Source of the DNA: an uncultured Candidatus Bathyarchaeia archaeon
Lineage (GTDB): Archaea; Thermoproteota; Bathyarchaeia; Bathyarchaeales; Bathyarchaeaceae
Length of the DNA stretch: 45,365 bases
Assembly: GCA_964346895.1 (NCBI GenBank)
Contig: CAYFWY010000002.1
Location: 1-45,365, forward strand
Direction of reading: 5' to 3'
Position numbers and translations under genes: made by a program. The notes beneath the pieces are model-generated. The model saw nothing but the letters and a program-made list of their open reading frames with translations. It searched no databases and had not been told where the DNA came from. Position 1 is the first letter of the stretch, and each line of letters begins with the position of its first letter. Shown piece after piece: positions 1,053 through 44,993 of the stretch.

Positions 1053-1064
1053 ATGCGCGCGCAA
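1053..1064. repeat. Alternating GC palindromic motif ATGCGCGCGCAA
   Basis: Read directly. Intergenic between bcp and ftr. Confidence 0.9.
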
Positions 1065-1107
1065 TACAGTTTGAAGTAGAACCCAAGGAATAACATACAG
1101 TTCTGAA

Positions 1108-1329
1108 GTGCCCTACGAAACCCCAGCAAAACGGCGTGTTGCGCGCGCGCGCATATACGTGCAACTTCTGCAGGGACAAGGCAAAGAAGAGTACATGTGT
1201 AAGGTAGCGACAACGCTTGAGGAAGCACAAAAATTAATAGAGAGCGGTTTCGAATATGTCACTTCAATGCAGATAGGCAAAATGGTCTATCAGATGTTCA
1301 GGAACAGGAAACCGTGGAAACCATGTTAG
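1108..1329 (+). CDS. Small hypothetical ORF; its C-terminal '..TLEEAQKLIESGFEYVT..FRNRK' module resembles a motif I recall from archaeal integrase/mobile-element-associated ORFs
   Basis: GTG-start ORF whose first third is encoded by the (GC)6 repeat at 1141-1152. An internal ATG (MCKVATT..., about 1195) is a more plausible start. The motif resemblance is from memory only. Confidence 0.3.
   Translation: MPYETPAKRRVARARIYVQLLQGQGKEEYMCKVATTLEEAQKLIESGFEYVTSMQIGKMVYQMFRNRKPWKPC
1139..1154. repeat. Alternating GC palindromic motif TTGCGCGCGCGCGCAT, inverted partner of 1053-1064
   Basis: Read directly. (GC)6 at 1141-1152. Confidence 0.9.
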
Positions 1330-2279
1330 GAAAAGTAGGAGACATCCAAGTAGTCAAAAAGACGGATATGGGATACATTCTGGAGAACGGATGTATAATT
1401 GAGGATACATTTGCTGAAATGTTTCCAATGTGGGCGGGAAGGATATTGATAACCGCTGAGAACGAGAAGTGGGCTCTAACCGCGGCAAAGACAGCGACTG
1501 GATTCGCTGCCTCCATAATTATGTCACCAGCAGAAGCCGGAATAGAAGGCATGGTAAATCCAGAAGAATCTCCAGATGGCCGCATTGGAGCACTAATTCA
1601 AATTTTCCACACAACAAGGAGAGCACTAAAGACTCAAATGAGCTTGAGAATTGGACAATGCATAATGACGTGCCCTACCACAGCAGCTTTCGACGCTTTA
1701 CCCGAGGCTAAAAGGAGATTGAAAGTTGGGAGAAGCCTACGCCTTTTTGGCGACGGTTTCCAAAAAATGGATTTAATCGCAGGAAGAAAGGTATGGCGCA
1801 TACCGATCATGGAAGGAGAATTCATTGTTGAAGACAGCTTCGGCATCGTAAAGGCTGTTGCCAGCGGAAACTTTCTAATCTTGGCAAAAAAACAAAAATC
1901 CGGGCTCCTGGCGGCAGAGGAAGCTATCAAGGCTATCAATCAAAAGGCTCAAAGAGTCATCATGCCCTTCCCAGGCGGAATCTGCGGATCAGGGTCCAAG
2001 ATAGGCTCGGTGAAATACAAACTCGCAGCGTCCACGAACCACCTCTTCTGTCCCACTCTTAGGAAAATCTTGTCCGATTCACAAGTACCAGACAATGTCG
2101 ATAGCGTTTACGAAATAGTGATAAATGGCTTAGATTCGGATAGTGTAAAAACGGCAATGGCTGAAGGGATAAAAGCAGCGGTGAAGGTTCCGGGCATCGT
2201 CAAAATTTCGGCGGGAAATTACGGAGGCAAGCTTGGTCCGTTTCGAGCCAATTTGAAAGAGGTCTTGAAACTAACATAA
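1314..2279 (+). CDS. ftr: Formylmethanofuran--tetrahydromethanopterin N-formyltransferase
   Basis: 'IEDTFAEMFPMWAGRILITA...ALTAAKTATGFAASIIMSPAEAGIE...PDGR...RIGQCIMTCPTTAAFDALPE' closely matches remembered Ftr sequences. The likely true start is ATG 1368 (MGYILENG.., 303 aa), which fits the usual ~300 aa length. Confidence 0.85.
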   Translation: METMLGKVGDIQVVKKTDMGYILENGCIIEDTFAEMFPMWAGRILITAENEKWALTAAKTATGFAASIIMSPAEAGIEGMVNPEESPDGRIGALIQIFHTTRRALKTQMSLRIGQCIMTCPTTAAFDALPEAKRRLKVGRSLRLFGDGFQKMDLIAGRKVWRIPIMEGEFIVEDSFGIVKAVASGNFLILAKKQKSGLLAAEEAIKAINQKAQRVIMPFPGGICGSGSKIGSVKYKLAASTNHLFCPTLRKILSDSQVPDNVDSVYEIVINGLDSDSVKTAMAEGIKAAVKVPGIVKISAGNYGGKLGPFRANLKEVLKLT

Positions 2280-2297
2280 CCTAGTACCCCTATCCAA

Positions 2298-3347
2298 TTA
2301 ACTTGTCAATTTGATGTATTCTGTACCCTTTCCTTCCGGAGAACCAACAAGTATTCGATAGTGTTCTCTGCGGGTTTTGTTATCTACAACACGCTCAAGT
2401 TTACCCCTAACTTCAATTGATTCACCAACTTCAGCGATACTGCCGTAAAGGCTTTCGTAAGAAACCACTTCTGCGATCTCACTTATCTGAGGTCCCTCTA
2501 CGATCTTTGCTTCCTCAATGCGATAGACGGAGGGAAGGAATAGGTGGTCTGTGTCGGCGCAGATAACTGCGCGGATAGTTGCTTGATCCACAGGGTAGTA
2601 AGTCTTTGCACCATATTCTTCAGAAATTTCCCACTCTAACTTAACCGGATGAACAGAAAATGATTTGCTTTCAAACATGCCTATGTTCCATTTCCGTTTG
2701 TAAATTTCTAAGGCTTCATCAGGTGTTAACGGATAATTCCTTGCTTTTCTAGCGCACCAAGCTTTAAGGACCTTTCCTTCATAACGTTTAACCGGAGAAC
2801 TTGGTAGAGAATAGTTTTCAATTAAGGCGTCTTTCACTGCTAAACTGCTTTTCAAGCCATAGATTGTTATGTCTATGTCTGAAAACTCGGGTTGATGAAT
2901 GTCTAGGAGGATTGAACCAGTTACTCCGAAAAAGGAGTAGGGGACATTGCTTATTTCTGTCAGAAATGAGGTGAGTCTGGTTAGTTTTTCCTGTAAAGGA
3001 TCTAAATGTGATTTCTGGAGCAGCTGATCCATTTTTTCTTCCGGTTTAAAGTGTTTTTTCAGATGATTATGTGGAACTGCTGTCAAGGTGATATTATAGA
3101 AAGAGGAATGAAACAGATAATGGGGATAGTTTCTTTCTAAAAGACTGAAAGTTTCTAGCAGGTTGGGAATAGTATAGTTTCTCAAAACTCTTTTGAATCG
3201 TTTTTCACCCTTTTTCCAAATACCGAACCGTGATGGAACATATTTTACGTAGGAGATGATTCGGTCCGGAGGATGTAATGAGCCAACTACACAGAAGAAG
3301 AAGCCTTCTCCTGTTTGTAGGAAATCCCTGTCTCTAAATCTTCGCAT
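2298..3347 (-). CDS. Pol-beta-superfamily nucleotidyltransferase with N-terminal 'RFRDRD' domain and C-terminal OB-like domain, paralog 1
   Basis: '[25 protein letters not shown]' is a GS...DxD minimal-NTase motif. The N-terminus '[35 protein letters not shown]' is shared with the two neighbours. The beta-rich C-terminus '[12 protein letters not shown]...[14 protein letters not shown]' looks OB-like. Confidence 0.7.
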
Positions 3348-3405
3348 GACCTTAACCTTTTTGACCAGCGATTATATAGTTATCCAATCTACGGGAGGTT
3401 CGGCA
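3348..3405. promoter_or_regulatory. 58-bp divergent promoter region between NTase paralogs 1 and 2, with a central TTATATA box
   Basis: TTATATA at 3372-3378. GGGAGG at 3393-3398 precedes ATG 3406. Confidence 0.35.
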
Positions 3406-4425
3406 ATGAAAGCATGGACTCCTAGAGACGGGGACACCTTTATCACCAAAGAGGGATTCATCTTCTATGTGTTTGGATATGAGCACCCTAAAAATCGGGT
3501 ATTCTCTTTTCTAAAATACATCCCATACAATCTTAAGTCGCACTTCCCCATACGCTTTCTTAGACAGAAATGGAAGCTCGGAAATGTAGAACTCGCTAGA
3601 GCAGAAAAACTCTACACCGCACAAAACTATCAAAAGCTTCTGGAAACTTTTCGAAGTACATATCCCCAATACGTTTACTCATGCCCTTTCCGTGGAAAAC
3701 AAGTTATAAGCGCTCCATTGGAACTCGTGAAGAGAGTTTACGTGCCAAAAGAGTGCCTTCAGAGGCTCTTTGAAAATAAAAGGAAGGATGGTCTACAGAA
3801 AGTAGCCTTAGAGCTACTCTCCCTTCTCTCCGCCGAATCTAAAGTGCCCTTTGAAGATTTTGGAATCCACGGATCTATTGCACTGAACATGCACACCGCG
3901 AAGTCTGATATCGATCTTGTAGTTTATGAATCTAGAAACTTCAGGAATCTAGAAAAAGCAATCGAAAAACTCGTTCGGGAAGGCACATTAAAATATATTT
4001 TCACAAAGAAGCTTGATAGAGCTAGAAGGCACAGGGGACGTTATAAAGAGAAACTTTTCGTTTACAACGCAGTGAGAAAGATTGGTGAAGTTAACGTTAA
4101 TTATGGGAATTACAAATATGTCCCCATTAGAGATATAACTTTCAGTTGCGAGGTTGTTGATGACAGCGAGGCCATGTTTAGACCCGCAATCTATCAGGTC
4201 AAGAATTGTCAACCCTTTGATCCGAACTCGAAACTGATGGAAGATAAAGTTCCTGAGAGAGTTGTTTCTATGATAGGCTACTACAGAAACGTGGCTAGAA
4301 AAGGAGAGAAAATCATGATATCAGGAATGCTGGAGCGAACGGAAAATGTTGAAACAGGAGAAAATACCTATCAAGCTGTGGTGGGTACAGGAACGCGCGA
4401 GGACGAATACATTTGGCCACTGTAA
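3406..4425 (+). CDS. Pol-beta-superfamily nucleotidyltransferase with OB-like C-terminus, paralog 2
   Basis: '[24 protein letters not shown]'. N-terminus '[32 protein letters not shown]'. ATG 3406 is preceded by GGGAGG (3393-3398). The ORF-track start at 3256 would overlap paralog 1 and is rejected. Confidence 0.7.
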
Positions 4426-5480
4426 GATTTAGGGACCGTGACGCCATAATTACGGCAGATAACATTATTTTCAGAGTTTACGGCTATTTTCATCCCTCAG
4501 ATGCATATGTTTGCGACCCAGAATACGCATCGGCTACAATATATAAATCAATGAATCCCCGAGCTCGACGGGGAAAAGGAAAAAATATTTACTACAAATT
4601 CTACGCAGACGAAGGCTTGCAATTCGTTATGGAAAAATATCCTCACCACAATATTTTCTATGAGCCATTGCAAACAAGTTTCATAGGCGTGTCAAGAGAG
4701 CACATCGCCAAAACGCGCAAACCAAATGATAAATTTCGACATCTGATTATAAAGCGACCCGGAGACAAACTTCTTAGAGCATTACACAGCTTGTCTGCGT
4801 TGGTCATATCCAGATCAGGGTTGTCAGAAAACGATTTCGGAGTTTTTGGCTCCCTCCTTCATGATTTCTATCACCCTACTTTTTCAGACATTGATCTTAT
4901 AGTTTACGGCAGACACAAGCTGAGGGAACTCTGTGAAACATTGAAAGAACTGTACCTCGAAGAGAATTCACTTCAAAACGAGTTTGAGAGCGAGGGGGCT
5001 CTTGAGGGAAAAAATTGGAAATTTGTAAACTTCAGCCCAAAGGAGTATCTCTGGCATCAGCGAAGGAAAAAAATATACGCCCTTTTCAAGAGCAAGGAAG
5101 GAAAAAGAATTGTTAAAACAGAATTCGAGCCAGTGAAAAACTGGAGTGAAATCTATAATGAATATAACCCAGATACACGAGTTCAAAATAGAGGTTGGAT
5201 TAAGGCTATTGCCCGAGTGACCGATGACCAAGATACACCCTTCATTCCGTCAATCTACCAAATCGAAGTTCTCAAAATTCTTGAAGGCTCAAAGGTTGAG
5301 AATATTAAACGAATTCTTTCCTACGTCGAAGAATTCAGGATGCAGGCAAAAAGGGACGAAAATGTTTTCGTGGAGGGAATCCTTGAAGAAGTGAAAACCA
5401 AAACCAAAAAATTTCATCAAATTACTTTAACGTATTGTCCTCGTTATTATGAACAAACTTTGAAGGTTATTAGAACATAA
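4413..5480 (+). CDS. Pol-beta-superfamily nucleotidyltransferase with OB-like C-terminus, paralog 3
   Basis: '[25 protein letters not shown]'. N-terminus '[27 protein letters not shown]'. TTG start overlaps the stop of paralog 2 by 13 nt. C-terminus '[12 protein letters not shown]...[12 protein letters not shown]'. Confidence 0.7.
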
Positions 5481-5851
5481 TATACTGATTTATGTAACAA
5501 AAGCCCCAAAAAAAGAGAAAAGAACAAAGATTGAATTACCTCTTTTAGTTTTGCAGTGCATTGTCACCCCTTTTCTTCGAGCTCCACAGTTGTTTTTATC
5601 CTGAGCTCTTTAGACACGTCTCGCATGCTCGCGGGCGCATGAGAAAGGAGGATTGAGTCTCTATTGAAATATCCTGGTGTTTAAGTGTCATTATTTGCAT
5701 GTATTCAGTAAGCGATGGCCTTTCCAAACAACAGGATTTTGACATTTCACCTTAGGATCATTACTGTCCAACATTGATTTTAGATGCTTTTAAAAGTCTT
5801 TTCTTAGAGAGTCTTTTGGATGATACTCTAAACCTTCAACCTGCTTTAGTC

Positions 5852-6124
5852 TCAGAAAAAGCCAAATTGCTCAAGCGCTTCCTCACGTCGTTGAACAAAA
5901 TTAATTTCAAGGACGTCTCTCAACCGCTTGTAGGTTTCCTTATCTACTGTTTTGTTCCGGAGTTGAACTTCAAGCCTCTCCAGTTGTTGTTCGAAGGCTC
6001 TCTTTTCTTTCACTCGATCTCCAACATAAGCATTTATTGACTTCCCTATTTTCTTCTTTTTCCCGAAAATAAAATTGAAACCCATGTCATCCCATCCTTT
6101 AAGATAAAATAAACAAGTATCCAT
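5852..6124 (-). CDS. Hypothetical small coiled-coil protein
   Basis: ORF only. Lys-rich N-terminus, then a heptad-like 'EQQLERLEVQLRNK..YKRLRDVLE'. Internal Met (MGFNFIFGKKKK) is an alternative start. Confidence 0.4.
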   Translation of the reverse strand: MDTCLFYLKGWDDMGFNFIFGKKKKIGKSINAYVGDRVKEKRAFEQQLERLEVQLRNKTVDKETYKRLRDVLEINFVQRREEALEQFGFF

Positions 6125-6171
6125 AAAAGCGACGCTCTATCTAGCGACATATGTCAGAAATAGAAATACAC

Positions 6172-6183
6172 ATGCGCACGCAA
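6172..6183. repeat. Motif variant ATGCGCACGCAA
   Basis: One substitution from the core. Lies in the divergent intergenic region 6125-6267. Confidence 0.8.
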
Positions 6184-6267
6184 TTATGTGATTCCTTCAA
6201 GAGAGGATCCTTATAATCTGCCCTAAACCCCTAAATAATTGGCAACGTCCTTACTTGTGAGAAACTG

Positions 6268-6453
6268 ATGCCCTTACAGGTAACTTGCCATGAATGCGGT
6301 TTTATTCTCTATGACGGAAAAGAGATGAAAGCTCCTGACGAAATCATAAACAACTACAACGGGAGATGCCCTAATTGCAGAAAAAAACTGTCTTATATCC
6401 CAAAAAGAGTTAAGATACAGCCTATTGATGAAACAAAATGGAGGCTCTTTTAG
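6268..6453 (+). CDS. Small zinc-ribbon protein
   Basis: Two CxxC pairs, 'CHECG...CPNCRKK', in 61 aa. Confidence 0.5.
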   Translation: MPLQVTCHECGFILYDGKEMKAPDEIINNYNGRCPNCRKKLSYIPKRVKIQPIDETKWRLF

Positions 6454-6496
6454 TCGCTGCCAAAGTTGATTACCTCTACGGATGGTAACTTCCTAC

Positions 6497-6507
6497 ACGC
6501 GTGCGCA
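6497..6507. repeat. Motif variant ACGCGTGCGCA
   Basis: Lies between convergent gene ends (6453 and 6510), 3 nt from the minus-strand stop. Identical 11-mer at 27035. Confidence 0.8.
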
Positions 6508-6509
6508 GT

Positions 6510-7664
6510 CTATTGTATAACGGAATGATACCAATTGATCATGTATTCGGGCAGTTTTAGTCCTCTTTCTCGTAGTCTTTCAGTCAGTTTAACAGGTAGC
6601 GGGCTCAGAACAAACGCTGTTCTCATGTAAAACCTTCTCGGTTGGCCTGGTCTGACTGTTTCTTCGAGGGTTATTTGGAAGTCTGACTTTTCAGCTAAAG
6701 TTGAATTCCTTGTTCCTGTGATCGATAATACAATTCCTTTCAGTTTCTTGAAGACATTACACCAGATAATAACTGGCTTGGTTTCTCCAGAAAACGACAC
6801 CAAGATCTCTAGATCCCTAGCTCTAGGACGTGGAGTGTTTACGCCTCTCGCTGTATACACATGGTCTCCCAAGAAACCTTTGATGTGGAAAAGTCTTATG
6901 GCGGTCATCTTAACGATTTCATTTGCGGTGCCCTTTCCACCTAGGAAAACGTTGCATCGGCTTTCCAGCAGATCAACTAGATGCGTATATGTTTCTGACT
7001 CCAAATTCGAGTCGATCATTGATCCTAGCGTAGCGAACTCTTCTTTGCATAGCTGAAACACTCCGTCTACTGGTAGGTTTCGGAAGATCGCTTCGGTCAT
7101 CATGCACATAAGCAGTAGACTTTCAAGCTCAAACATATCGCCCATTATGCCTGTTTCGCTGTATTCAAAGGAGGGCTTCGATCTTCCTCGTCCCTTCAAT
7201 TTGATAACATATCCGTATTCACGGGCTATCTGAGCTATGGGAGAGTTCACACCAGAGGTTACAAGTCCTATTGAAAACCTCGATGTTTTTTTATCTTCAA
7301 TATATTTTGCCAAATCTTGCGCCATCGCTAGGGGATCGTCAGAAAAACCGCTTCCTGAGTTTATCAAAAGCAGAATTTTTTTATATCGTCTTTCGAGTTG
7401 AGCAGCCGCATCGTACATACTTTTTCCTGGGAAGCCCGGATCGTCCGGTGTTAACACAATCTTATTTCTCCAGCCTATCTTACTCATTGCGATTTGGCTC
7501 ATCGCTGCGTTCAAGGAGTACAGTGACCTACCTGATCCGCTACAGACCACACAATCGGCGGATTTGAGGTCTTCGTATAAGGGCAAAAGTTGTCGTTGTT
7601 TTATAGAAAGAATGTTATCTCTGATCCTGTTTACGTATTCTAAATTGCTGATTTTGCTTCCCAT
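6510..7664 (-). CDS. Double SIS-domain sugar-phosphate isomerase-like protein
   Basis: 'VVCSGSGRSLYSLNAA', 'LLLINSGSGFSDDPLAMAQ' and 'LVSFSGETKP' resemble SIS phosphosugar-binding motifs repeated in two halves. Exact specificity cannot be determined. Confidence 0.6.
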   Translation of the reverse strand: MGSKISNLEYVNRIRDNILSIKQRQLLPLYEDLKSADCVVCSGSGRSLYSLNAAMSQIAMSKIGWRNKIVLTPDDPGFPGKSMYDAAAQLERRYKKILLLINSGSGFSDDPLAMAQDLAKYIEDKKTSRFSIGLVTSGVNSPIAQIAREYGYVIKLKGRGRSKPSFEYSETGIMGDMFELESLLLMCMMTEAIFRNLPVDGVFQLCKEEFATLGSMIDSNLESETYTHLVDLLESRCNVFLGGKGTANEIVKMTAIRLFHIKGFLGDHVYTARGVNTPRPRARDLEILVSFSGETKPVIIWCNVFKKLKGIVLSITGTRNSTLAEKSDFQITLEETVRPGQPRRFYMRTAFVLSPLPVKLTERLRERGLKLPEYMINWYHSVIQ

Positions 7665-7907
7665 CTAAATCATGCCTCATTAAAGAACTTCGTCAAGTAT
7701 TAATCTTAAACTTATGTGTACGTATGCAGGCAGCTATTGCCAAGCATCGAATATGCATTAAGCAATCCTCAACCAGTTTACAGTGGAACCTTCGCAATTC
7801 CAAGGATGTCTACATCAATTGAAATTGAGATTCTCATCTTTTTTTCAGATTCTACTTTTTGTCGCATAAAATACCTCTCTCTTTTGTCGCCTTAAAGAAG
7901 TTTGGAC

Positions 7908-9566
7908 TTAAGCCTTTGCTAGAACGCTTCCTAGATGAGCAGGCTCCACGAGCCGAGAATACCGCAGTAGATAACCTTTTCTAACCTTCTGTTGTTTCGG
8001 CTTCCACGACTTTAGACGGTTTACCAGTTCTTCATCAGTCAGCTCTACGTTCAGTTTTCTCTTTGGAACATCAATTTCAATTACATCTCCATCTCTTAGT
8101 AACGCTATCGGTCCGCCCTCAGCTGCTTCGGGAGAAACGTGCCCTATACAGGGTCCTCTGGTAGCTCCTGAAAACCTTCCGTCAGTGACCAAGGCAACTG
8201 ACTCGCTTAACCCCATTCCAGCCAAGGTAGCTGTTGGAGAGAGCATTTCCCTCATTCCCGGCCCCCCCTTTGGTCCCTCATAACGAATGATAACAACCTC
8301 TCCTCCAAGAATTTTCTCATTCAGTATGGCCTCCATAGCTTCCTCCTCAGAGTCGAAAACCTTCGCCGGACCTTTGTGGAAAAGCATTTTAGGTGCTATG
8401 GCAGTGGCTTTCACCACAGCACCTTTGGGTGCCAAGTTTCCCTCCAAGATTGCTATACCCCCCTCAGGATGAACAGGGTTAGTTAGGGGACGAATTACAT
8501 TGGTATCAAGGACTACCGTCTTCTTGATGTTTTCTTCAATAGTTGTTCCCGTAACAGTGAGAGCGTTCAAATGCAGAAGGGGACTTAGCTCGTTCATAAG
8601 AGCAGGGATTCCACCTGCTGCATCTAGATCTTCCATTGTAAAAGGTCCACTGGGAGCCATATTGCAGATGTGAGGAACTCGTCTACTCAATTTATCGAAA
8701 AGAGGTAGAGGTAAGGAAACTTCAGCCTCCCTTGCTATCGCCGAAAGATGCAAGACTGTGTTTGTTGATCCCCCTAACGCCATATCTACCATTACGGCGT
8801 TTTCAAAAGCTTCGGAAGTCAGAATGTCTAGTGGCCTCAGGTCTTCTGTTACTAATTCAACAGCTCTTTCTCCACTGGCCTTGGCAATTCTTAGCCTGGC
8901 AGCGCTAACAGCGGAAGGAGTTGCACATCCCGGAAGAGAAATGCCTAAGGCCTCGGTGAGGCAAGCCATAGTGTTTGCTGTAAACATGCCGTTACACGAC
9001 CCGCAACTAGGACACGCAAGGTTTTCAAGTGTCTTCAACTCTTCTTCATTCATTTTACCTGCAACGACTTCTCCAACGACTTCAAACATGGAAGCTGTAC
9101 CAATTCTCTTTCCGTTGTTGATACCTGAAAGCATGGGTCCACCAGTAACGACGACTGCGGGAAGATTTAGCCTAGCCGCGGCCATCAACATGCCAGGTGT
9201 TGTTTTATCGCAGTTTGCGATCAAAATCATCCCATCAAATCTATGGGCTTGAACCATGACTTCAACTGAATCGGCAATCAGCTCACGTGATGGCAAAGAA
9301 TATTTCATTCCTTCGTGGCCCATGGCCAATCCGTCGCAGATAGCTATTGTGTTGAATTCAAAGGGTACACCACCAGCGGATATGACTCCGGCTTTAATAG
9401 CGTCAGCTACTTGGTTTAGGTGAGCATGACCAGGAACCACTGTTGTGTAACTGTTTACCACGGCAATGAAGGGTTTGTCTAGGTCTTTGTCTGTGATTCC
9501 AAGGGCCTTAAGCAAAGCTCTGTGGGGAGCCCTTTCAACTCCCCGTTTTATAGCGTCACTTCTCAA
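7908..9566 (-). CDS. ilvD: Dihydroxy-acid dehydratase
   Basis: 552 aa. '[19 protein letters not shown]', '[16 protein letters not shown]', '[13 protein letters not shown]', '[28 protein letters not shown]' are hallmark IlvD blocks. Confidence 0.95.
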
Positions 9567-9718
9567 CTTTCTCCCTCTTTGAAGTTTTCCTCTTGGTTAT
9601 TAGAGACTAGATAAATAATAAAGACACAGAAAAGCTTTTATATGGAATACTTTGTTGATGTTCTGGAACGAGGAGCAAAAAATGGGGGATTATTGGGTTT
9701 CCGAGAGATGTGAAATGA

Positions 9719-11251
9719 GGGATCGTTTTATCGAATAGTTTCCCCGAGAAAATAAGAATTTTTGACACCACCCTTAGAGATGGTGAACAAACACCTGGAG
9801 TTTCCCTAACTCCAGAAAACAAACTTAGAATCGCAAAAAGCCTAGACAAACTTGGAGTAGATGCTATCGAGGCTGGTTTCGCTGCGGCATCCGACGGAGA
9901 GATGAGCGCAATAAAACTCATAGCTAAAGCGGGGCTTAGAGCAGAGGTCTACAGTATGGCTAGAGCGGTAAAAAGAGATATAGATGCTGTGCTGGAAAGC
10001 GACGCCGAGGGAGTACATCTGGTTGTTCCTACATCAAATCTACACCTCGAATACAAACTGAAGAAAGATGAGAAAGAAGTCTTAAGATTAGCCGAGGATT
10101 GCACCCAATATGCCAAGGACCACCAACTCGCTGTTGAACTTTCGGCTGAAGACGCCACGAGAAGCGAACTAAGTTTTCTAACCAAAACATTTGATGCATG
10201 CATTTCTGCGGGTGCCGACAGAATTTGTCCATGCGACACCGTTGGAGTTTTGACACCAGAAAAAACTTATGAGCTATTCTCAAAGCTGAGGAATACATTT
10301 CCTCAAGTTCCAATAAGCGCTCACTGCCACAATGACTTTGGATTGGCTGTGGCAAACTCGATATCCGCCTTAAAAAGTGGAGCTGATGAAGTTCACGCTA
10401 CAATAAATGGGTTGGGAGAGAGAGCTGGAAATGCTTCCCTTGAAGAAATAGCTGTTGCCCTGAGGGCAGCCTACAAAGTGAAACTGTCGATAAAAACCGA
10501 GCGGTTGTATGACACATCAAGGCTGGTAGCGCGATTAACTGACTTTCCCCTCCAGCCAAACAAGGCAATCGTAGGAGAAAACGCCTTTGTTCACGAGTCA
10601 GGTATGCACACTCATGGTATATTGGCACATCCATTGACCTATGAACCAATTTCCCCCGAGTTAGTTGGACGTACTAGGCGACTGGCGTCTGGCAAACACG
10701 CTGGTTCTCATGGAATCAAAGCGTCTCTAAATGAAATGGGACTAAACCCAAGTGATGAGCAACTTCAAAAGGTCTTTTTGCAAGTGAAAACATTAGGAGA
10801 TAAAGGCAAGAAGGTCACCGATGCTGATTTGCAGACAATAGCGGAAACTGTAATGGGACTACCAAAAACCCGTTCAATAAAGCTTGAAGAGCTAACGGTT
10901 GTCACAGGAGACAGAGTTACCCCAACAGCTTCGGTGCGCTTAAGCCTAAACGGCAACGTGCTAACAGAAGCAGCTATTGGAGTAGGCCCAGTAGATGCAG
11001 CGATGAATGCTGTGAAGAAGGCTGTCTTAGCTGTTGACCCTATACAGCTGGAAAACTACTCTGTTAAAGCGATCACCGGAGGCACCGAAGCCGTCACTGA
11101 AGTTGCCGTTCAGTTGCGTAGAGGTAATAGAATAGCTACAGCCATAGGAGTTAATGATGATATAGTGATAGCGAGCATTCAGGCAATGCTGAGTGGCATG
11201 AATGTATTGATGACAGATTATAGCAAAGTTAAGTTAAAGGAGAAATCTTGA
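9719..11251 (+). CDS. cimA: (R)-citramalate / 2-isopropylmalate synthase family (CimA/LeuA); N-terminus lacks a canonical in-frame start
   Basis: My translation upstream of the ORF-track start (9902) gives '..FPEKIRIFDTTLRDGEQTPGVSLTPENKLRIAKSLDKLGVDAIEAGF'. This is very close to the remembered M. jannaschii CimA N-terminus. 'HCHNDFGLAVANS' and a C-terminal regulatory domain are present. The frame is open only from 9719 and has no ATG/GTG/TTG before the catalytic motif (see finding). Confidence 0.85.
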   Translation, partial: GIVLSNSFPEKIRIFDTTLRDGEQTPGVSLTPENKLRIAKSLDKLGVDAIEAGFAAASDGEMSAIKLIAKAGLRAEVYSMARAVKRDIDAVLESDAEGVHLVVPTSNLHLEYKLKKDEKEVLRLAEDCTQYAKDHQLAVELSAEDATRSELSFLTKTFDACISAGADRICPCDTVGVLTPEKTYELFSKLRNTFPQVPISAHCHNDFGLAVANSISALKSGADEVHATINGLGERAGNASLEEIAVALRAAYKVKLSIKTERLYDTSRLVARLTDFPLQPNKAIVGENAFVHESGMHTHGILAHPLTYEPISPELVGRTRRLASGKHAGSHGIKASLNEMGLNPSDEQLQKVFLQVKTLGDKGKKVTDADLQTIAETVMGLPKTRSIKLEELTVVTGDRVTPTASVRLSLNGNVLTEAAIGVGPVDAAMNAVKKAVLAVDPIQLENYSVKAITGGTEAVTEVAVQLRRGNRIATAIGVNDDIVIASIQAMLSGMNVLMTDYSKVKLKEKS

Positions 11252-20549: not shown

Positions 20550-20553
20550 AATG

Positions 20554-33073: not shown

Positions 33074-33085
33074 TGCATTGTTCTC

Positions 33086-33888: not shown

Positions 33889-33901
33889 TGCGCGCGCGCA
33901 T
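33889..33901. repeat. Alternating GC motif TGCGCGCGCGCAT
   Basis: Intergenic, 64 nt upstream of the RAM-domain gene start at 33825(-). Confidence 0.9.
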
Positions 33902-34162
33902 ATCTCCCTTGCTTATGTAGTTGGAATAGCTCTTTTTCCGGAAACCGAAATCAAAAATTGAGGACATCGCAGTTCATACACATATTTCACAAGTATGTTC
34001 CTGCATCTATGTTTGCATCTAATCAAACATGCTGCAAGACTAAGTAGTTTAAGCCAGCGCAGCCTACTATTCTTCTGTACACAATCACTAGTACCCTATT
34101 CGATTTTTTTAATCAGAAAAGGCATTCAATTTTTGGAATAATCAAATCATATAAATAGGTAA

Positions 34163-35110
34163 GTGTTATTCTTGAGAAAGACAATAGGTGCAAATAAGGG
34201 AAAAGAAATGAAAGATTTTTCTCCTGGTTTTCTGATGGGCGGTCTGTTTGTCCTAATTCACAGTCTGGCTTTGTTCGTGATAGGGCCATTTAAAGCCGCT
34301 GATATGGGGGCGTTTGAGAACCCGAATGATCCGATGAATCTAGTTTTCTTCTTTTTGACGTTGCTAATTGTTACGGCTACAATTTTGTTAATCGCCAAAT
34401 TTTGGAAGAAACAATTTATACAGGGCATTATTTTAGGGGCAACAGGGTTTACCGCCTTCTATGTATTTTATCCTTTACTGTCTTATGTTGTTCCGGAGAT
34501 GTGGTCTTTGTTTCTCTCAGCTACGACCGCGGCTATTCTGATTATATCGCTCGTCAAGTATCCTGAGTGGTATGTAATAGATATATGCGGAGTTGTGATG
34601 GGAGTAGGTGCAATTGCGATGTTCGGTATTTCGTTAAGCGTCTTTTTGGCCATCGTCTTGCTCATCGGATTGGCGATATACGATGCTGTATCGGTGTACA
34701 AAACTAAGCATATGCTTGACCTCGCAGACACTGTTGTAGATCTCAAATTGCCTGTTATACTGGTCATACCGAAAGTCAGAAGGTATTCTTTACTTAAAGA
34801 TGCAAAGAGTTTGAAAGAAAAACTCAGAGATGGCGAAGAAAGGCAGGCGTTTTTTCTAGGACTAGGAGATGTAATAATGCCTGGAGTTCTAGTTGCATCC
34901 ACCTTTCATAACATTGCCAGCAACGGACTCCTCATAGCCTTGTCGGTGATGCTTGGAACACTCCTTGGTTTTACAGCCCTTATGGCTGTTGCCATTAAAG
35001 GAAAACCACAAGCAGGACTGCCATATCTTTGCAGTGGCGCCATATTAGGCTACATAGTGTCGAGCTTCATATTATTTGGAGAACTGGTTGGTCTTACCTT
35101 TTCCATCTAA
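34163..35110 (+). CDS. Presenilin/signal-peptide-peptidase-type intramembrane aspartyl protease (A22 family)
   Basis: Multi-TM. 'LAIYDAVSVYKTKHM' (YD motif), 'FFLGLGDVIMPG' (GxGD motif), and a C-terminal 'AGLPYL' (PAL-like). ATG 34208 (MKDFSPG..) is a likely start. Confidence 0.7.
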   Translation: MLFLRKTIGANKGKEMKDFSPGFLMGGLFVLIHSLALFVIGPFKAADMGAFENPNDPMNLVFFFLTLLIVTATILLIAKFWKKQFIQGIILGATGFTAFYVFYPLLSYVVPEMWSLFLSATTAAILIISLVKYPEWYVIDICGVVMGVGAIAMFGISLSVFLAIVLLIGLAIYDAVSVYKTKHMLDLADTVVDLKLPVILVIPKVRRYSLLKDAKSLKEKLRDGEERQAFFLGLGDVIMPGVLVASTFHNIASNGLLIALSVMLGTLLGFTALMAVAIKGKPQAGLPYLCSGAILGYIVSSFILFGELVGLTFSI

Positions 35111-36176: not shown

Positions 36177-36596
36177 CTAGGAATGATGATTATTCTTCTT
36201 CTTTTGTTTTTTGAAATGAAGTGCTGTAGAGTTGATACAGAAACGACGGCCCGTGGGTTTAGGACCATCATCAAAAACATGCCCAAGATGTCCACCACAT
36301 GCGCGACATAGCACTTCAGTTCTTCTTCTTCCCAAACTGTCATCCCTTTCCATTCTCAAGTTTTCTTTGGACACCGGAGCCCAAAAACTCGGCCAACCAG
36401 TTCCCGAATCAAATTTTGTATCTGAAGAAAACAATTCGTTCCCGCAACCAGCGCAGGTGTATGTTCCTTTTTTCCTATGTTTAACATATTTTCCAGTGAA
36501 TGGTTGTTCAGTTCCTTTTTCTCTCAGCACATGATACTCTTCTGGAGTGAGACTATTTCTCCACTCCTCCTCTGTTTTTTTTATTTTGGGTTTCAT
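36177..36596 (-). CDS. msrB: Peptide-methionine (R)-S-oxide reductase
   Basis: 'GTEQPFTGKY....KGTYTCAGCGNELFSSDTKFDSGTGWPSFW', 'EVLCRACGGHLGHVFDDGP.PTG.RFCINS'. Confidence 0.9.
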   Translation of the reverse strand: MKPKIKKTEEEWRNSLTPEEYHVLREKGTEQPFTGKYVKHRKKGTYTCAGCGNELFSSDTKFDSGTGWPSFWAPVSKENLRMERDDSLGRRRTEVLCRACGGHLGHVFDDGPKPTGRRFCINSTALHFKKQKKKNNHHS

Positions 36597-36671
36597 GTCC
36601 GTTCAAGGTCCTCCAAACTTTTACGCGAGGTGTGAAAAGGCATAAGGGTCCTCAAATTTTTCGAGAGATAT

Positions 36672-37166
36672 CTATGTTATGTGGCTCGAAAGGTCTAGGA
36701 GACAAGCTTGTGCGTGTCCTTTTACCTTTACTTTTCGGTATACTTTCTTTATAATCCCCTTTTCATCAATCAAGAAGGTGGTTCGTTCCGTTCCCATGAA
36801 AGTCTTACCGTAGAGGCTTTTCTTTTTCCATACTCCATAGAGGCTCAAAGCGTTCCCTTCTGGGTCGCTGAGCAACGTGAAGGGCAAACTATGTTTTCGC
36901 TTGAACTTCTGGTGTGATTGAATGCTGTCTTTGCTTACGCCAAGGATAATTGCGTCCTCTTTCTCAAAATCTTTTGCAATGTCCCTGAACTCAATAGCCT
37001 CTTTGGTACATCCAGGAGTTCCGTCTTTAGGATAGAAGTAGAGCACTACTTTCTTGCCTCGGTAGTCACTCAAAGAGACTTGTTTTCCATCATCAGCATA
37101 CAAAGTGAAGTCCGGAGCCTCTTCTCCCGCGCTAACCAAAGATAATCGCCATATACATCGTGGCAT
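36672..37166 (-). CDS. bcp: Peroxiredoxin, Bcp family (second copy, host-like GC)
   Basis: 'APDFTLYADDGKQVSLSDYRGKKVVLYFYPKDGTPGCTKEAIEFRD'. TTG at about 37139 is an alternative start. Confidence 0.85.
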   Translation of the reverse strand: MPRCIWRLSLVSAGEEAPDFTLYADDGKQVSLSDYRGKKVVLYFYPKDGTPGCTKEAIEFRDIAKDFEKEDAIILGVSKDSIQSHQKFKRKHSLPFTLLSDPEGNALSLYGVWKKKSLYGKTFMGTERTTFLIDEKGIIKKVYRKVKVKGHAQACLLDLSSHIT

Positions 37167-37615
37167 TCTTCAAATTTAAGATCTATCCTCTACAAGCGAT
37201 TGGATTTTAATACTCTTTCTAAACCTAGAATTGAGAAACAACAATGGATAATCCTGTAAAGAAGGGTGTTTCTAGACACAAGTTAGCAAGAACAGTTTTC
37301 ATAATCATTTTGGAAGTGCGCGCGGATGTTAAGGAGATTTCGGAGTAATCGTTAAATAATATGTTTTTTGAAGATTTCGATCAAACTTTCTCTTTCTAAG
37401 ACCGCTTTATACCATGGATACATGTCCATAGTCTATTTTTTCTAGCTTTTTTTCGCAATTCGGTATGCTTAAGTATGCTTTTTTATGTCTCTTGGTCTCA
37501 CGAACCTTTATATTGATGGTAAGCCTATATAGAAAGCAGATATGTCTAATAAAGGACATATTGTACATGAGTTGAACTGAAAAACTGTAGAGCAGAAATA
37601 CATGAGGAAAATGAA

Positions 37616-38799: not shown

Positions 38800-39218
38800 T
38801 ACTCAAAGAGACACTTTTCCTAGGGCCGAGCAAATAAATTTTTTATAACATCAAAATTTCACAAATATTCCCCAATCAAGAGCAACTCTAATCGATTACA
38901 GGTGTGCAGCCATGTGAAAGTAGCCCAAGTGTTCTACTTAGACCTGCATGCATTTTCGTTGTTGGAGAAATCAATCAAGTGGTGAATAAGAAGAGCGAAC
39001 GGCATATTTGAGAAAGTTAACGAAGATTTGCCTAGGATTCCGTGATTTAAAGAAGTGGAAAGGTGATACCAGCGGCAGTAGAGGTTCCAATCTGCTAACA
39101 AAGAGGTCATCTTGGACCAGATTTTTCGTCTTTCCGATCATAGATCGCAAGTATCTAATTGTTTTTCAACATTTGGGACGTCGAATGTGACAAGAGTGTA
39201 GGGGGCAGGTTTAGTTTT

Positions 39219-41546: not shown

Positions 41547-41558
41547 ATGCGCGCGCAA
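41547..41558. repeat. Alternating GC palindromic motif ATGCGCGCGCAA
   Basis: Intergenic, 76 nt upstream of the archaeosortase start (41471, minus strand). Identical 12-mer to 1053 and 44982. Confidence 0.9.
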
Positions 41559-43263: not shown

Positions 43264-43994
43264 ACTACATCTTACATATTCCGCTCATTGAGCCTATGAG
43301 CCATGCAGCGTCTCTGCTTTTAGCTCTCGTTTTTTCTTTTTGATTAGCCACCTTAAATGAAAAGAGTAAAGGTTCATCTTTTGAATGCCTAAAAATCATG
43401 CTTCCTCCCTTATTGTAGGTGCCTAAGTAGTTACAACAATTACGCCTAAAAGGCTTGTTAAGTGCCAAGGATATGTTAGCCCAATATGTTCATTGAGGAT
43501 AAACAAGCCAATGCCGAAGAGAAGTGTCATGTGTAAAAGAAATTGACCACAAGCGGGAGAAGAAGATTGCCGTAAACATGCAAAAATGCGCCCTTTCATC
43601 CATGCAAGATTTTTGATTTTTGTTCTGAGAAAGTGTTAGCTTCAAAATAGCGGTAACCATCAAATCAAGCTTGAAATTCGATTATCTTTATATTGCATTT
43701 TGTATTGTGTTGTTAATGGAAAAGCGTTTGTCGCATCTTTGTCACGCTCAACTGTGATCACATATGGCTTTCATCCACTTCAACTACGCGCTAACTGAAA
43801 TTCTCAACCTGGGCAAGCTGCTCCAGTGTCTAGCGCAATGTAACCAATGAAAAGTTAAGGTTTTCTGGCAAATTAATCAGCTTAAACATACAAATCGTAT
43901 TATATGTTCATGTATTTTCTAGATAGGATATATGTCATAAACTGAAATAATTGAATAATATATTGGTAAGAATTGGTTTTCATAGAGAGCCAAA

Positions 43995-44603
43995 ATGAAT
44001 CTTATCCAACTTCTCCTATCAGAAAGTCTGAGAAACAGAAATCCCCAAATAGAACTGCAAGTTTCAGACAAAAGACTGCTGCGCACAGCCAGTGAAGACT
44101 TGATGAATTATTTTATGTTTCACTGGAAGATGACGAGCCAAGAAATAACTCAACTTGAATTTAAAGAACGGATCCGCAGATATCTTATTGAAGAACCAGA
44201 AGAACTCAAAGAGTTTTTGAAAATCTGGTCCGGACTTTGGATGAAAAAATGGAATGAACGGGTTAAGCCTGTCACAGAGACCATAGAATCTCAACGTCTA
44301 GAGAAAAATCGCAAAAGACTAAATCAAGCTGAACCTTTATGGAACCAACTTAGAAGCCGAACCCAAATCAAAGACATTATTACAGAAGCTCTAATTAGAA
44401 ATGGAGAAATCTGTGGAACATCCATCCTAGCTGAATATCTACTCAAAACCGAATTGGCGTCAAGGATGGAAAGAAGAAATCCCACAAATTCGCTTCAAGA
44501 TCTTTTAGACATCACGAACAAAGCGCTAAAAAGAGCGAGAAATCTTTCTCGAACTAAGGGAAAAACAATCTTTATCATAACCAGGAAACCACGCCTCAAA
44601 TAG
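43995..44603 (+). CDS. Hypothetical protein
   Basis: 202-aa ORF, helical and charged. No recognisable motif. Confidence 0.4.
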   Translation: MNLIQLLLSESLRNRNPQIELQVSDKRLLRTASEDLMNYFMFHWKMTSQEITQLEFKERIRRYLIEEPEELKEFLKIWSGLWMKKWNERVKPVTETIESQRLEKNRKRLNQAEPLWNQLRSRTQIKDIITEALIRNGEICGTSILAEYLLKTELASRMERRNPTNSLQDLLDITNKALKRARNLSRTKGKTIFIITRKPRLK

Positions 44604-44670
44604 CAGCAAAGCGTGGACCTTTAGTCTTAATTTCGTAAAAATTGGTCTTTTCCCATAACTGAGAGGTTCT

Positions 44671-44856
44671 CTATTCAAGTTCGATTATTGGTGGTTTCTT
44701 CCAAGCATGTTTACGCTTGAATTCTCTAAAATGTTTACCTATCCATCCTTTCAAATCGACTGGTATCTTATGATCTCTTTCTAGATGTTCTTTTCTCTGC
44801 TCTCTCGGAATGGTTAGACCGCAGTATTTACATTCTATCAACAGTTTTCCGGTCAT
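44671..44856 (-). CDS. Small C2H2-like zinc-finger protein
   Basis: 'CKYCGLTIPREQRKEHLERDH' fits C-x2-C-x12-H-x4-H spacing. Confidence 0.45.
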   Translation of the reverse strand: MTGKLLIECKYCGLTIPREQRKEHLERDHKIPVDLKGWIGKHFREFKRKHAWKKPPIIELE

Positions 44857-44981
44857 AGGATAATAACCTCTACAAGTTTCACTACTTTTCTAGCTGGATA
44901 CTCGATTAAAGTTTTTGATGCTATATTGGTTAATGCAGTTGAGTTCAGTCCAAATCACCTACCTGGCAATTGCCCTCCTAA

Positions 44982-44993
44982 ATGCGCGCGCAA
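44982..44993. repeat. Alternating GC palindromic motif ATGCGCGCGCAA
   Basis: Intergenic between 44856(-) and 45021(-). Confidence 0.9.

Follow-up and report, generated by a model that had tools for sequence, protein, structure and literature searches.

A family of GC palindromes between transcription units in one clade of uncultured Bathyarchaeia

Copies in the window and their form

The window is a stretch of 45,365 nt of DNA from a Bathyarchaeia archaeon. The first-pass annotation had reported seven long (GC)n runs in it, and all seven were confirmed where it had placed them; no strand is assigned to these or to the tracts described below. A (GC)4 copy at 1055-1062 (context catGCGCGCGCaat) lies 77 nt past the stop codon of a peroxiredoxin gene and is unchanged in L151, a related sequence 99.5% identical to the window. 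It is the left partner of an inverted pair with the longest copy, (GC)6 at 1141-1152, which is enclosed by an alternating purine-pyrimidine (RY) run at 1140-1163. A (GC)5 copy at 15253-15262, within the perfect 16-nt palindrome TATGCGCGCGCGCATA, is located in the 735-nt spacer preceding a Rad50-like gene. This copy and the ATG of a doubtful ORF, 15251-15580, overlap; the ORF scores low for coding and matches no Pfam family. C(GC)4 at 31173-31181 follows the stop codon of the glutamate dehydrogenase gene by 60 nt. A RAM-domain gene and a signal-peptide peptidase (SPP) gene diverge from a spacer that contains (GC)5 at 33890-33899, some 264 nt ahead of the SPP start, and L001 and L082 retain a copy at the equivalent place. 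The two remaining (GC)4 copies lie between the minus-strand archaeosortase gene and the minus-strand ORF374 (41549-41556), and 380 nt past ORF 43995-44603 (44984-44991). All seven are outside long ORFs, and the stop-free frames that run over them are at most 129 codons long.

Mixed RY tracts accompany the pure copies. The tract ATACACATGCGCACGCA at 6166-6182 differs from its L152 ortholog, ATACACATGCGCGC, by a G/A transition. The word ACGCGTGCGCA, within TACACGCGTGCGCA at 6494-6507, also appears in the comparison of L100 with L101, as a pure copy changed by C>T. Further tracts are TATGTGTACGTATGCA at 7713-7728 in the SIS-ilvD spacer, ACGCGTGCGCACATG at 27035-27049, and ATGCGCGTGCATGTGCAT at 28979-28996, which opens the spacer of 891 nt that precedes the glutamate dehydrogenase gene. 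The (GCAT)n type is represented by GCATGCACATGCATA at 29430-29444 and by two short members, ATGCATGCA at 29286-29294 and TGCATGCAT at 38945-38953. The divergent spacer between the peroxiredoxin and PadR genes contains GTGCGCGCG at 37316-37324, with a GC run of 7 nt. GCGCGC-N13-GCGCGC followed by T6 (20536-20560), where the DUF7662 gene has its stop codon, is composed of two 6-nt runs, a length class at chance level; its first run, 20536-20541, falls in the final codons of ORF 19842-20549, although the first-pass annotation had seen GCGCGC within coding DNA only in the N-terminal extension of msrA. That msrA word is at 32599-32604, not 32606-32611, and TGCGCACACATA is at 27395-27406, not 27405-27416. 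ATGCTCGCGGGCGCAT at 5625-5640, previously listed among the variants, is not alternating.

The main form of the element is (a)T-GCGCGCGC-A(t), at times lengthened to (GC)5-6, and a sister family consists of (TGCA)2-4, equivalent to (GCAT)n. It is a compact motif with A/T flanks and contains no information past two flanking bases; AT is present on both sides in many copies, but only in about half of all. The commonest run length is exactly 8 nt, with 24, 11, 27, and 9 intergenic runs of 6, 7, 8, and 9 nt, respectively, and the G-first phase exceeds the C-first phase by 25 to 3. This length mode and phase preference argue for a sequence-specific agent.

The strong enrichment proposed earlier holds in the window against a dinucleotide-shuffled background. 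GCGCGCGC shows 11 overlapping matches at seven loci, against a mean of 0.12 in 100 dinucleotide-preserving shuffles, none of which reached 11; in a separate count, (GC)≥4 runs of 8-12 nt were found at seven loci versus 0.165 expected. Strictly alternating RY runs, nearly all intergenic, number 12 at ≥14 nt (0.49 expected) and 18 at ≥12 nt (3.2 expected). GCGCGC occurs 22 times versus 3.1 expected, while GCGC beyond the tracts is about as frequent as expected; as seed words, GCGC and CGCG occur 112 and 83 times. Among dinucleotide repeats in the window, only (GC)n is enriched, the counts of (AT)n, (AC/GT)n, and (AG/CT)n being as expected. Prokaryotic genomes in general show suppression of GC8 and RY12 patterns (PMC4060949), and thus a special cause is needed for the archaeal tracts.

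Placement between genes and distribution among relatives

Copies occur between transcription units, whether these are tandem, convergent, or divergent, as judged from crude gene calls and from related loci that all belong to two genomic neighbourhoods in metagenome assemblies. Divergent spacers hold at least 12 copies. Among 19 copies behind a plus-strand gene, 10 are within 60 nt of its stop codon. The earlier description is borne out in that the element is dispersed and non-coding and is found between transcription units irrespective of gene orientation, and it recurs across the lineage. The claim that nearly every spacer longer than 100 bp carries a copy was overstated: among 26 such spacers in the window, five contain a (GC)≥4 run and 11 contain any RY run of ≥11 nt. 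It fits better in the 8.7 kb directly left of the window, for which L151 stands in, where four of the five spacers of ≥160 nt have a run of ≥8 nt. A classical regulator site, also suggested earlier, is not supported; no fixed distance from the copies to start codons or AT-rich boxes was found, and their substitution level, given below, is close to that of other spacer DNA.

The GC palindrome family is confined to one clade of uncultured Bathyarchaeia. The close relatives of the window (clade A) contain 49 copies, or 1.39 per 10 kb, of which 45 are intergenic, while distant Bathyarchaeia and Thermoplasmatota-labelled MAGs contain 0.10 per 10 kb. The same clade limit was repeated in a second genomic neighbourhood. 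In clade A, (GC) runs of ≥8 nt number 46 versus 1.9 expected, and (GCAT)n/(TGCA)n runs of ≥10 nt, enriched in this clade only, number 19 versus 1.0 expected (~19-fold). Other self-complementary di- and tetranucleotide repeats, like non-RY palindromes, do not exceed expectation in clade A, and neither (AC/GT)n nor (ACGT)n is enriched there. This, together with the preferred G-first phase, makes RY alternation alone insufficient as an explanation.

The same spacer keeps a copy in genomes whose spacers are unalignable, both on the 3' side of glutamate dehydrogenase and upstream of SPP. In L002, (GC)4 is located 39 nt past the stop codon of the glutamate dehydrogenase ortholog, in a spacer that is otherwise unalignable.

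Turnover of the tracts and ends of homology blocks

Turnover of the tracts is rapid, and they mutate about as fast as the adjoining spacer DNA. Substitution is 8.4% inside RY tracts versus 9.7% in other spacer DNA, a difference based on 39 substitutions, with which a reduction of ~15-30% could be missed; it is near neutral and not measurably reduced. No transition bias, and no bias to changes preserving RY alternation, was found among the tract substitutions. Between relatives, single transitions are observed in tracts. One pair of close relatives differs by a 4-nt CGCG indel (CGCGCGCGCG versus CGCGCG), the sole unit-number polymorphism found, and in another case a 10-nt tract is wholly present or absent at an AT-flanked site that has no GCGC seed. 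In the indel spectrum, which comprises few events, palindromic duplications of 2-4 nt are not clearly in excess.

Tracts are also found at the ends of homology blocks. Twelve of 60 block ends are within 5 nt of an RY tract, versus 5.8% of random intergenic positions (p = 1.5e-4), a ~3.5-fold excess that is gone at ±60 nt. One homology break falls exactly at GCGCGCGCG, and homology with the ftr-upstream block of L153 and L154 starts at 1156, 4 nt past the (GC)6 copy. Break sites and copies both favour gene ends, and therefore the association may be partly a shared location preference.

Possible origins and related elements

The closeness of 10 of the 19 copies to the preceding stop codon would suit a role in the untranslated regions (3' or 5') as a terminator, processing site, or stabilising hairpin, and the longer copies fold singly at -7 to -14 kcal/mol, and the pair 1055/1141 at -37 kcal/mol. 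However, the dominant 8-nt copies reach only -1.7 to -3.7 kcal/mol, which shuffled sequences match (z-scores ≥0.5), neither a consistent T-tract beside the copies nor an Rfam match was found, and 3' ends are not expected in the divergent spacers. Such an RNA-level role, raised by the first-pass annotation, is the least probable of the explanations. Hardly more probable is a by-product of restriction-modification or methylation at GCGC or GCGCGC, or the excision footprint of a cut-and-paste transposon with GCGC ends that duplicates an AT target. The 8-mer equals two GCGC units, the motif is clade-specific, and the one tract that is wholly present or absent between relatives has AT flanks; yet GCGCGC is over-represented rather than avoided, the AT flank is limited to about half of the copies, and no element with matching termini is seen in ~400 kb of clade-A sequence. 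Methyltransferase, nuclease, and transposase genes are absent from the window, and the near-expected GCGC count outside the tracts makes a general repair bias unlikely.

Plain microsatellites, in which replication slippage lengthens hairpin-prone self-complementary repeats in a lineage whose repair is weak, the repeats having no function or role in breakage, would account for the unit-number polymorphism, the near-neutral substitution, and the limitation to DNA where frameshifting indels do no harm. This origin is improbable, as no other repeat class, including (AT)n, (ACGT)n, and (AG)n, is enriched, run lengths peak at 8 instead of declining steadily, and the G-first phase is far stronger than the seed words predict. 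The 10-nt tract at a seedless site and the excess exactly at block ends also speak against it. A less remote but still rather unlikely explanation is a selected boundary element in DNA that separates neighbouring transcription units, either a protein-recognised T(GC)4A or a Z-DNA flip; the agent would be a dimeric nucleoid or insulator protein, a type II topoisomerase, or Z-DNA under transcription-driven negative supercoiling. Occurrence in all gene arrangements, the exact 8-nt mode with its phase and palindromic A/T flanks, and recurrence in the same spacer of diverged genomes are consistent with it, as is the choice of deformable pyrimidine-purine steps for cleavage by Top6 (PMC13040014). 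Against it stand the unreduced substitution without bias towards RY-keeping changes, the pure copy in just five of 26 long spacers, the lack of a known binding protein, and the unenriched Z-prone (AC/GT)n and (ACGT)n; estimated from textbook energetics, a CG tract of 8 bp is borderline for passing from B- to Z-form at ordinary superhelical density.

Under the best explanation, the copies are most likely not individually conserved operators or RNA hairpins. The tentatively preferred reading, held at somewhat less than even confidence, is a DNA-level element that is repeatedly generated by a sequence-specific process, seemingly tied to breakage and rejoining, rather than a strongly conserved operator or terminator. 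A two-fold-symmetric process on DNA would keep making (GC)n and (TGCA)n tracts, which would then disappear through unit-number changes and ordinary point mutation. They would survive only where 2-4 nt indels are tolerated, between transcription units, and would tend to mark the exact edges of segments rearranged between relatives. A dimeric enzyme or a break-and-rejoin process, such as hairpin-assisted slippage, or fill-in after staggered cleavage, may both make and use the tracts, and any benefit, as a supercoil sink or boundary, would be weak. No candidate enzyme was identified. Some observations go against repeated generation: same-spacer copies in unalignable genomes look like maintenance by selection, and the sharp 8-nt mode with A/T flanks would suit a protein-binding site as well.

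Type II topoisomerases cleave with two-fold symmetry and leave 2-nt (Top6) or 4-nt overhangs (PMC13040014). Trapped Top2 leads to small tandem duplications through end joining, and the TOP2-linked signature consists of 2-4 bp de novo duplications (bioRxiv 10.1101/2020.05.03.075358; PMC8795545). Fill-in of such overhangs would yield self-complementary units of 2 nt (GC) or 4 nt (TGCA, GCGC), as in the archaeal tracts, though the parallel is no more than a resemblance, and the archaeal indel spectrum is too sparse to display such duplications.

The tracts resemble several known elements in part. Like REP/BIME of enterobacteria and pseudomonads, they are short intergenic palindromes found with any gene orientation, frequently close to 3' ends and in some cases arranged as inverted pairs. 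REP elements, reported as gyrase-binding sites, are imperfect palindromes of 20-40 nt with a conserved non-palindromic head, stable stem-loops, and a link to RAYT transposases, whereas the archaeal tracts have a pure (GC)n core of 8-12 nt with neither head nor stable hairpin, and no RAYT gene was seen. The GC clusters of yeast mitochondria are likewise GC-rich palindromes scattered in AT-rich intergenic DNA and are tied to recombination and rearrangement, but they are organellar, 30-50 bp long, and form sequence families with flanking conservation, in contrast to the 8-16 nt tracts without flanking family structure. The RY box of the Halobacterium bop promoter, a Z-DNA-prone alternating tract with a CG core in non-coding DNA, is a proposed supercoiling sensor. 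Its position within that single promoter is fixed, while the archaeal copies keep no fixed promoter distance and other Z-prone repeats are not enriched. HIP1 (GCGATCGC) of cyanobacteria is also a hugely over-represented, lineage-specific, GC-rich 8-bp palindrome, highly iterated and of unsettled function. HIP1 occurs at ~1 per kb and is common within genes, whereas the archaeal tracts occur at 1.4 per 10 kb, are essentially intergenic only, and are tandem, with length variants and the sister (TGCA)n family.

Alternating tracts in the window and among its relatives

The G+C content of the window is 41.3% over 45,365 bases. Seven (GC)n runs of at least 8 nt are present, as reported in the first-pass annotation, at 1055-1062, 1141-1152, 15253-15262, 31173-31181, 33890-33899, 41549-41556, and 44984-44991. 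The enrichment, formerly estimated from base composition, holds against dinucleotide-preserving shuffles: GCGCGCGC has 11 overlapping matches at 7 loci, while the shuffle mean is 0.12 and 0 of 100 shuffles reach 11. None of the seven runs is crossed by a stop-free frame longer than 129 codons. (GC)n is the sole enriched dinucleotide repeat in the window, with 7 loci against 0.165 expected; the counts are 1 against 0.7 for (AT)n, 0 against 1.0 for (AC/GT)n, and 6 against 3.4 for (AG/CT)n. Strictly alternating purine-pyrimidine (RY) runs are in excess as well (40 observed and 16 expected at ≥10 nt; 18 and 3.2 at ≥12 nt; 12 and 0.49 at ≥14 nt), and almost all of them are outside genes. The longest RY runs reach 24 nt.

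Several details of the first-pass annotation were revised. TGCGCACACATA, placed there at 27405-27416, is at 27395-27406, and the GCGCGC in the N-terminal extension of msrA is at 32599-32604, not 32606-32611. The sequence at 5625-5640, listed as an alternating variant, does not alternate, and the listed 20536-20541 is within the final codons of an ORF. Around this last position (20536-20575), GCGCGC-N13-GCGCGC followed by TTTTTT at the stop codon of the DUF7662 gene resembles a bacterial-type intrinsic terminator. The statement that nearly every spacer longer than 100 bp carries a copy was too strong; on a gene map refined by Pfam matches, a pure run is found in 5 of 26 such spacers and an RY run of at least 11 nt in 11 of 26.

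Contig loci from relatives were analyzed in two groups. Clade A (352 kb) includes the window and those loci, fetched with the signal-peptide peptidase (SPP), whose SPP is identical to that of the window at about 69% of positions or more. Clade B (882 kb) is made up of more distant Bathyarchaeia together with MAGs labelled Thermoplasmatales, Thermoplasmata, or Thermoplasmatota. (GC)≥4 runs number 49 in clade A (1.39 per 10 kb), 45 of them outside genes by crude gene calls, and 9 in clade B (0.10 per 10 kb). Repeat expectations come from a first-order Markov model, and for clade A the counts cover 315 kb of non-redundant sequence. In clade A, 46 (GC)n runs of ≥8 nt (1.9 expected), 7 of ≥10 nt (0.08 expected), and 19 (GCAT)n/(TGCA)n runs of ≥10 nt (0.99 expected) were observed, as were 10 strings of GC and AT dinucleotides alone of ≥14 nt (0.06 expected). 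No (GCAT)n of ≥10 nt was found in clade B, against 4.6 expected. Dinucleotide repeats other than (GC)n, the self-complementary tetranucleotide repeats ACGT, AGCT, GATC, CCGG, and AATT, and palindromes without RY alternation are all at or under expectation in clade A. The CCGG/GGCC-type 8-nt repeats are wholly missing (none in either clade, where 5.9 would be expected in clade A and 11.4 in clade B), with restriction-site avoidance as a possible cause, and (AATT)n is at about half of expectation in the loci of both clades.

The enrichment is repeated in a second, independent neighbourhood, the 8.7 kb of contig L151 beyond the window, which has four further runs of 8-10 nt together with (GCAT)3 and RY tracts of 14-22 nt, all of them intergenic. 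In L153, a locus with 85% ftr identity, five (GCAT)n tracts and no pure (GC)4 are present in 11.8 kb; thus, the balance of the two motifs varies among lineages. One survey reported GC8 and RY12 patterns to be broadly suppressed across prokaryotes (PMC4060949), and a survey of short tandem repeats reported archaea to be the poorest domain (PMC12699852). Clade A is an exception. The enrichment of the motif is robust and unusual, and no specific description of it was found in the literature on archaea or Bathyarchaeia.

The flanks of the runs carry information at the first two positions alone. Of 84 half-sites, 50 have A at +1 and 38 have T at +2, and no conservation was seen past the second position out to 80 nt. 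The unit can thus be written (a)T-GCGCGCGC-A(t). A MITE or a REP element with hidden flanks was rejected, since the flanks farther out carry no information. The run lengths in clade A show a distinct mode at 8 nt (41 runs of 6 nt, 12 of 7 nt, 28 of 8 nt, 11 of 9 nt, 5 of 10 nt, and one each of 11 and 12 nt); the 6-nt runs are at about chance level, and 17 of them are in genes. At length 8, 25 runs are G-first and 3 are C-first. The window has 112 GCGC and 83 CGCG seeds, and thus this phase bias is not explained by seed frequency. The (GCAT)n run lengths peak at 8, 12, and 16 nt.

RNA folds of the common 8-nt copies (-1.7 to -3.7 kcal/mol, z of at least 0.5) are no better than those of shuffles, and folds of -7 to -14 kcal/mol are reached by the longest copies only. 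The close pair at 1055 and 1141 is able to pair mutually (z = -2.4), and a comparable close pair in the relative L099 has z = -1.2. A structured RNA was rejected, as no Rfam family or tRNA was found and the folds of single copies and pairs are unremarkable.

Placement, turnover, and homology block ends

The copies are found in tandem, convergent, and divergent spacers alike, with at least 12 in divergent spacers. Among those 3' of a plus-strand gene, 10 of 19 are within 60 nt of the stop codon. The distance from a copy to the next start codon is mostly 50-300 nt and ranges from 5 to more than 600 nt. AT-rich boxes have no fixed offset from the copies, and a promoter element or BRE was rejected for lack of a constant AT-box offset. 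A seemingly very strong promoter consensus was an artefact that reflected the orthologous promoter of SPP, which all fetched loci share. This promoter, ATCAAAyCCTATAAATAGGTAAGTGTTATTCT (window 34125-34165; L001 1526-1566; most of the loci L071-L112), is near-invariant in the clade and ends near the start codon.

Small ORFs next to tracts were recognized in the relatives. A 131-aa ORF with a Phage_integrase domain (L153, 7363-7769) starts inside the RY tract CGTATGCATGCATGCG. A 36-aa cysteine-rich ORF (MCESSKASYECCGQTF...HKTCCCS, translated by eye) is located in the region 2149-2386 on the minus strand of L099 and is also present in L097 and L100. In L099 it has a (GC)4 copy on either side, and a third lies 67 nt beyond.

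A unit-number polymorphism of 4 nt was observed in a single case, CGCGCGCGCG in L097 against CGCGCG in L100, and one whole tract is present or absent between relatives (CCAT-GCGCGCGTGC-ATTTGC against CCAT-CTT-ATTTGC). Single transitions between close relatives change GCGCGCGC to GCGCGCAC and ACGCGCGCGCA to ACGCGTGCGCA, and the variant word ACGCGTGCGCA occurs twice in the window. Substitutions were compared, using all alignments of 85-99.5% identity, between non-coding columns in RY tracts of ≥11 nt and other spacer DNA. The divergence is 8.4% in RY tracts (39 substitutions, with 22 transitions, 17 transversions, and 426 unchanged columns) and 9.7% in other spacer DNA, which indicates that the copies evolve near the neutral rate, in a sample small enough to miss modest constraint. 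Inside the tracts the transition/transversion ratio is 1.29, compared with 2.41 in the other spacer DNA. RY alternation shows no special protection. An origin of the RY tracts purely through transition decay of (GC)n was rejected; transitions occur, but their ratio is not raised inside the tracts, and the mixed tracts exceed every pure copy in length.

Two spacers point the other way from near-neutral turnover. In the spacer 3' of the glutamate dehydrogenase gene, a copy lies 60 nt past the stop codon in the window and 39 nt past it in L002, while the remaining spacer is unalignable. Upstream of SPP, a copy is at the same place in the window and in L001 and L082, the left neighbour genes being unrelated.

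The gene order near SPP varies in almost every clade-A lineage. The SPP gene with its promoter (about 1.0-1.1 kb) shows 88-94% nucleotide identity between contigs and has unrelated DNA on either side; thus, the unit behaves like a cassette. The homology block shared by L097 and L100 begins exactly at GCGCGCGCG, with unrelated left flanks, and a further block begins immediately past TTGCATGCATGCATG. GCGCGCGC is directly 3' of the SPP stop codon in L077, where the sequence of L078 is unrelated. The ftr-upstream homology to L153 and L154 begins at window position 1156, 4 nt past the (GC)6 copy. Among 60 unique internal block ends, 12 have an RY tract of ≥10 nt no more than 5 nt away, compared with 5.8% of random intergenic positions (p = 1.5e-4), in a test where the ends are mutually non-independent, tracts and block ends both favour gene ends, and the data are metagenome assemblies of two neighbourhoods. 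Within 10 nt the numbers are 14 of 60 and 7.7%, and within 60 nt the block ends show no significant excess of tracts. Assembly chimeras are an unlikely cause of this pattern because the tracts are far shorter than assembler k-mers.

Comparison with known elements and possible origin

The motif is rated as belonging with the short interspersed extragenic palindromic repeats, and it lacks defining features of REP elements, HIP1, operators, and terminators. It shows partial likeness to REP elements, HIP1, Z-DNA-prone tracts, and yeast mitochondrial GC clusters, each in different respects. REP/REPIN elements are imperfect palindromes of about 20-40 nt with a stable stem-loop, a conserved non-palindromic head (GTAG-like), and family-wide flank similarity, whereas the motif has a core of 8-12 nt, its 8-nt copies fold weakly, and its flanks are informative at positions ±1 to 2 (A/T) only. 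No gene for RAYT (Y1 transposase), the partner of REP/REPIN, was found within the window. HIP1-type elements consist of a single fixed octamer that is common inside and outside genes, whereas the motif is intergenic in 45 of 49 cases and varies from 8 to 12 nt. In form, the tracts are simple sequence repeats, with head-to-tail units of 1-6 nt as (GC)4-6 and (TGCA)2-4, and T(GC)4A, with 10 bp of alternation, has the sequence of a Z-DNA-prone tract (CG-rich RY, about 8-12 bp or more).

An RNA hairpin or terminator is unsupported for the bulk of the copies: an intrinsic terminator has a stable 3'-end stem-loop with a T-run, whereas the folds here are weak, many copies are in divergent spacers, and no Rfam match was obtained. 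Nor is a classical regulator site supported, since a transcription-factor operator keeps a constant distance to the promoter or start, while the distances from the copies to start codons and AT-boxes vary, with no AT-box at a fixed offset, and any slowing of substitution in the tracts (8.4% against 9.7%, from 39 substitutions) is modest at most. A restriction-site word should be avoided in its host, and the opposite is seen, GCGCGC being over-represented in the window (22 against 3.1 expected). Microsatellites show steadily declining lengths and several raised repeat classes, whereas the motif has an 8-nt mode, a 25:3 phase, and other classes at expectation. General microsatellite instability was rejected because other repeats are not enriched, and generic slippage is unsupported because just two self-complementary repeats are enriched, with length and phase sharply defined. 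Z-DNA propensity by itself is insufficient because (AC/GT)n and (ACGT)n are unenriched. A GCGC-directed repair bias was rejected, as GCGC beyond the tracts is near expectation, and so was a general palindrome-perfecting process, as palindromes without RY alternation are at expectation.

What remains is a sequence-specific, two-fold-symmetric agent on duplex DNA, creating the tracts, using them, or both. The near-neutral rate of turnover, together with the excess of tracts at block ends, tentatively favours the tracts as a self-renewing element tied to breakage and rejoining. A weakly selected boundary or protein site ranks second, as a somewhat less likely reading; the copies retained in the glutamate dehydrogenase and SPP spacers suit such a site, and the near-neutral divergence of the tracts speaks against it. 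Cleavage by a type II topoisomerase would unite the self-renewing and boundary readings. In its full form, with the tracts as favoured cutting sites of a two-fold-symmetric enzyme of the clade, most likely a topoisomerase, and as self-breeding and reshuffling joints, this proposal is improbable.

Under this proposal, the (GC)n and (TGCA)n tracts would be preferred cleavage sites of the enzyme, most plausibly a type II topoisomerase (Topo VI or gyrase) that would relieve supercoiling at the borders of transcription units. If cleavage aborted, the self-complementary overhang would be duplicated as the ends were filled in and rejoined, so that cut sites might multiply themselves in GC or TGCA/GCGC units, and the multiplied sites could become joints for the reshuffling of gene cassettes between genomes. 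Filling in a self-complementary overhang of 2 or 4 nt would give exactly the GC or TGCA/GCGC unit repeats; the few indels available show no clear surplus of palindromic duplications of 2-4 nt. Gyrase leaves 4-nt overhangs. Eukaryotic Top2 reportedly favours alternating purine-pyrimidine repeats, as the title of one report has it. Cleavage by Top6 leaves 2-nt overhangs and occurs at deformable pyrimidine-purine steps (PMC13040014), and trapped Top2 leads to tandem duplications of 2-4 bp via end joining (bioRxiv 10.1101/2020.05.03.075358, PMC8795545).

Alternating GC and RY tracts are normally suppressed in prokaryotes (PMC4060949), and a clade with 20-90 fold enrichment between genes only is a natural experiment on the role of such DNA. 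The tracts could serve as a supercoil sink, a site for a symmetric enzyme, or a fragile rearrangement joint. Should complete genomes bear out the association with rearrangement junctions, the very poor gene-order conservation among these contigs would have a concrete basis in sequence. The motif is also a simple marker for binning and classification of this uncultured Bathyarchaeia lineage, and it marks the borders of transcription units in its genomes.

Host lineage and gene content

The closest SPP relatives (75-86% identity) are on contigs of uncultured Bathyarchaeia, as are the closest relatives of the ftr protein. An assignment to Methanosarcina, suggested by ftr, CitG, and the 41% G+C, was rejected on these matches. 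Exact look-ups of the ftr product of the window (as the GTG-start ORF and as P0001) gave no record. The NCBI contig L151 is 99.54% identical, without gaps, to window positions 1-12279 and adds 8.7 kb of genome leftward. The gene content of the window includes formylmethanofuran:H4MPT formyltransferase (ftr) and an ilv/leu cluster, a Rad50-like ATPase, a CdvA/ESCRT-III/Vps4 cluster, CitG, glutamate dehydrogenase, presenilin-type SPP, and archaeosortase.

Immediately upstream of ftr and overlapping its start, a small ORF of about 56 aa (1156-1329; ...EEYMCKVATTLEEAQKLIESGFEYVTS...RKPWKPC) has conserved counterparts in L152, L153, and L154 and is annotated as a gene in L151 and L152; no Pfam family was found for it. 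In the region 9567-9902, the leuA/cimA-like ORF, when taken from its first canonical start at 9902, is missing some 50 residues at the N-terminus of the HMGL domain, while the in-frame sequence upstream of 9902 is still typical of LeuA. In L151, which is 99.5% identical, the public gene call begins 192 nt farther upstream, giving a product of 513 aa. Either the start codon is unusual or, as these observations also suggest, the start was wrongly listed.

Genes for oxidative stress (thioredoxin, two peroxiredoxins, msrA, and msrB) are concentrated at 23-977, 32020-32634, and 36177-37166. The Cdv-type cell-division cluster (21293-24788) encodes two Snf7/ESCRT-III proteins, CdvA, and a Vps4-like AAA ATPase with an MIT domain. 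At 32828-33825, three successive minus-strand genes each encode an Lrp/AsnC ligand-binding (RAM) domain on its own (81-87 aa), with no DNA-binding domain attached.
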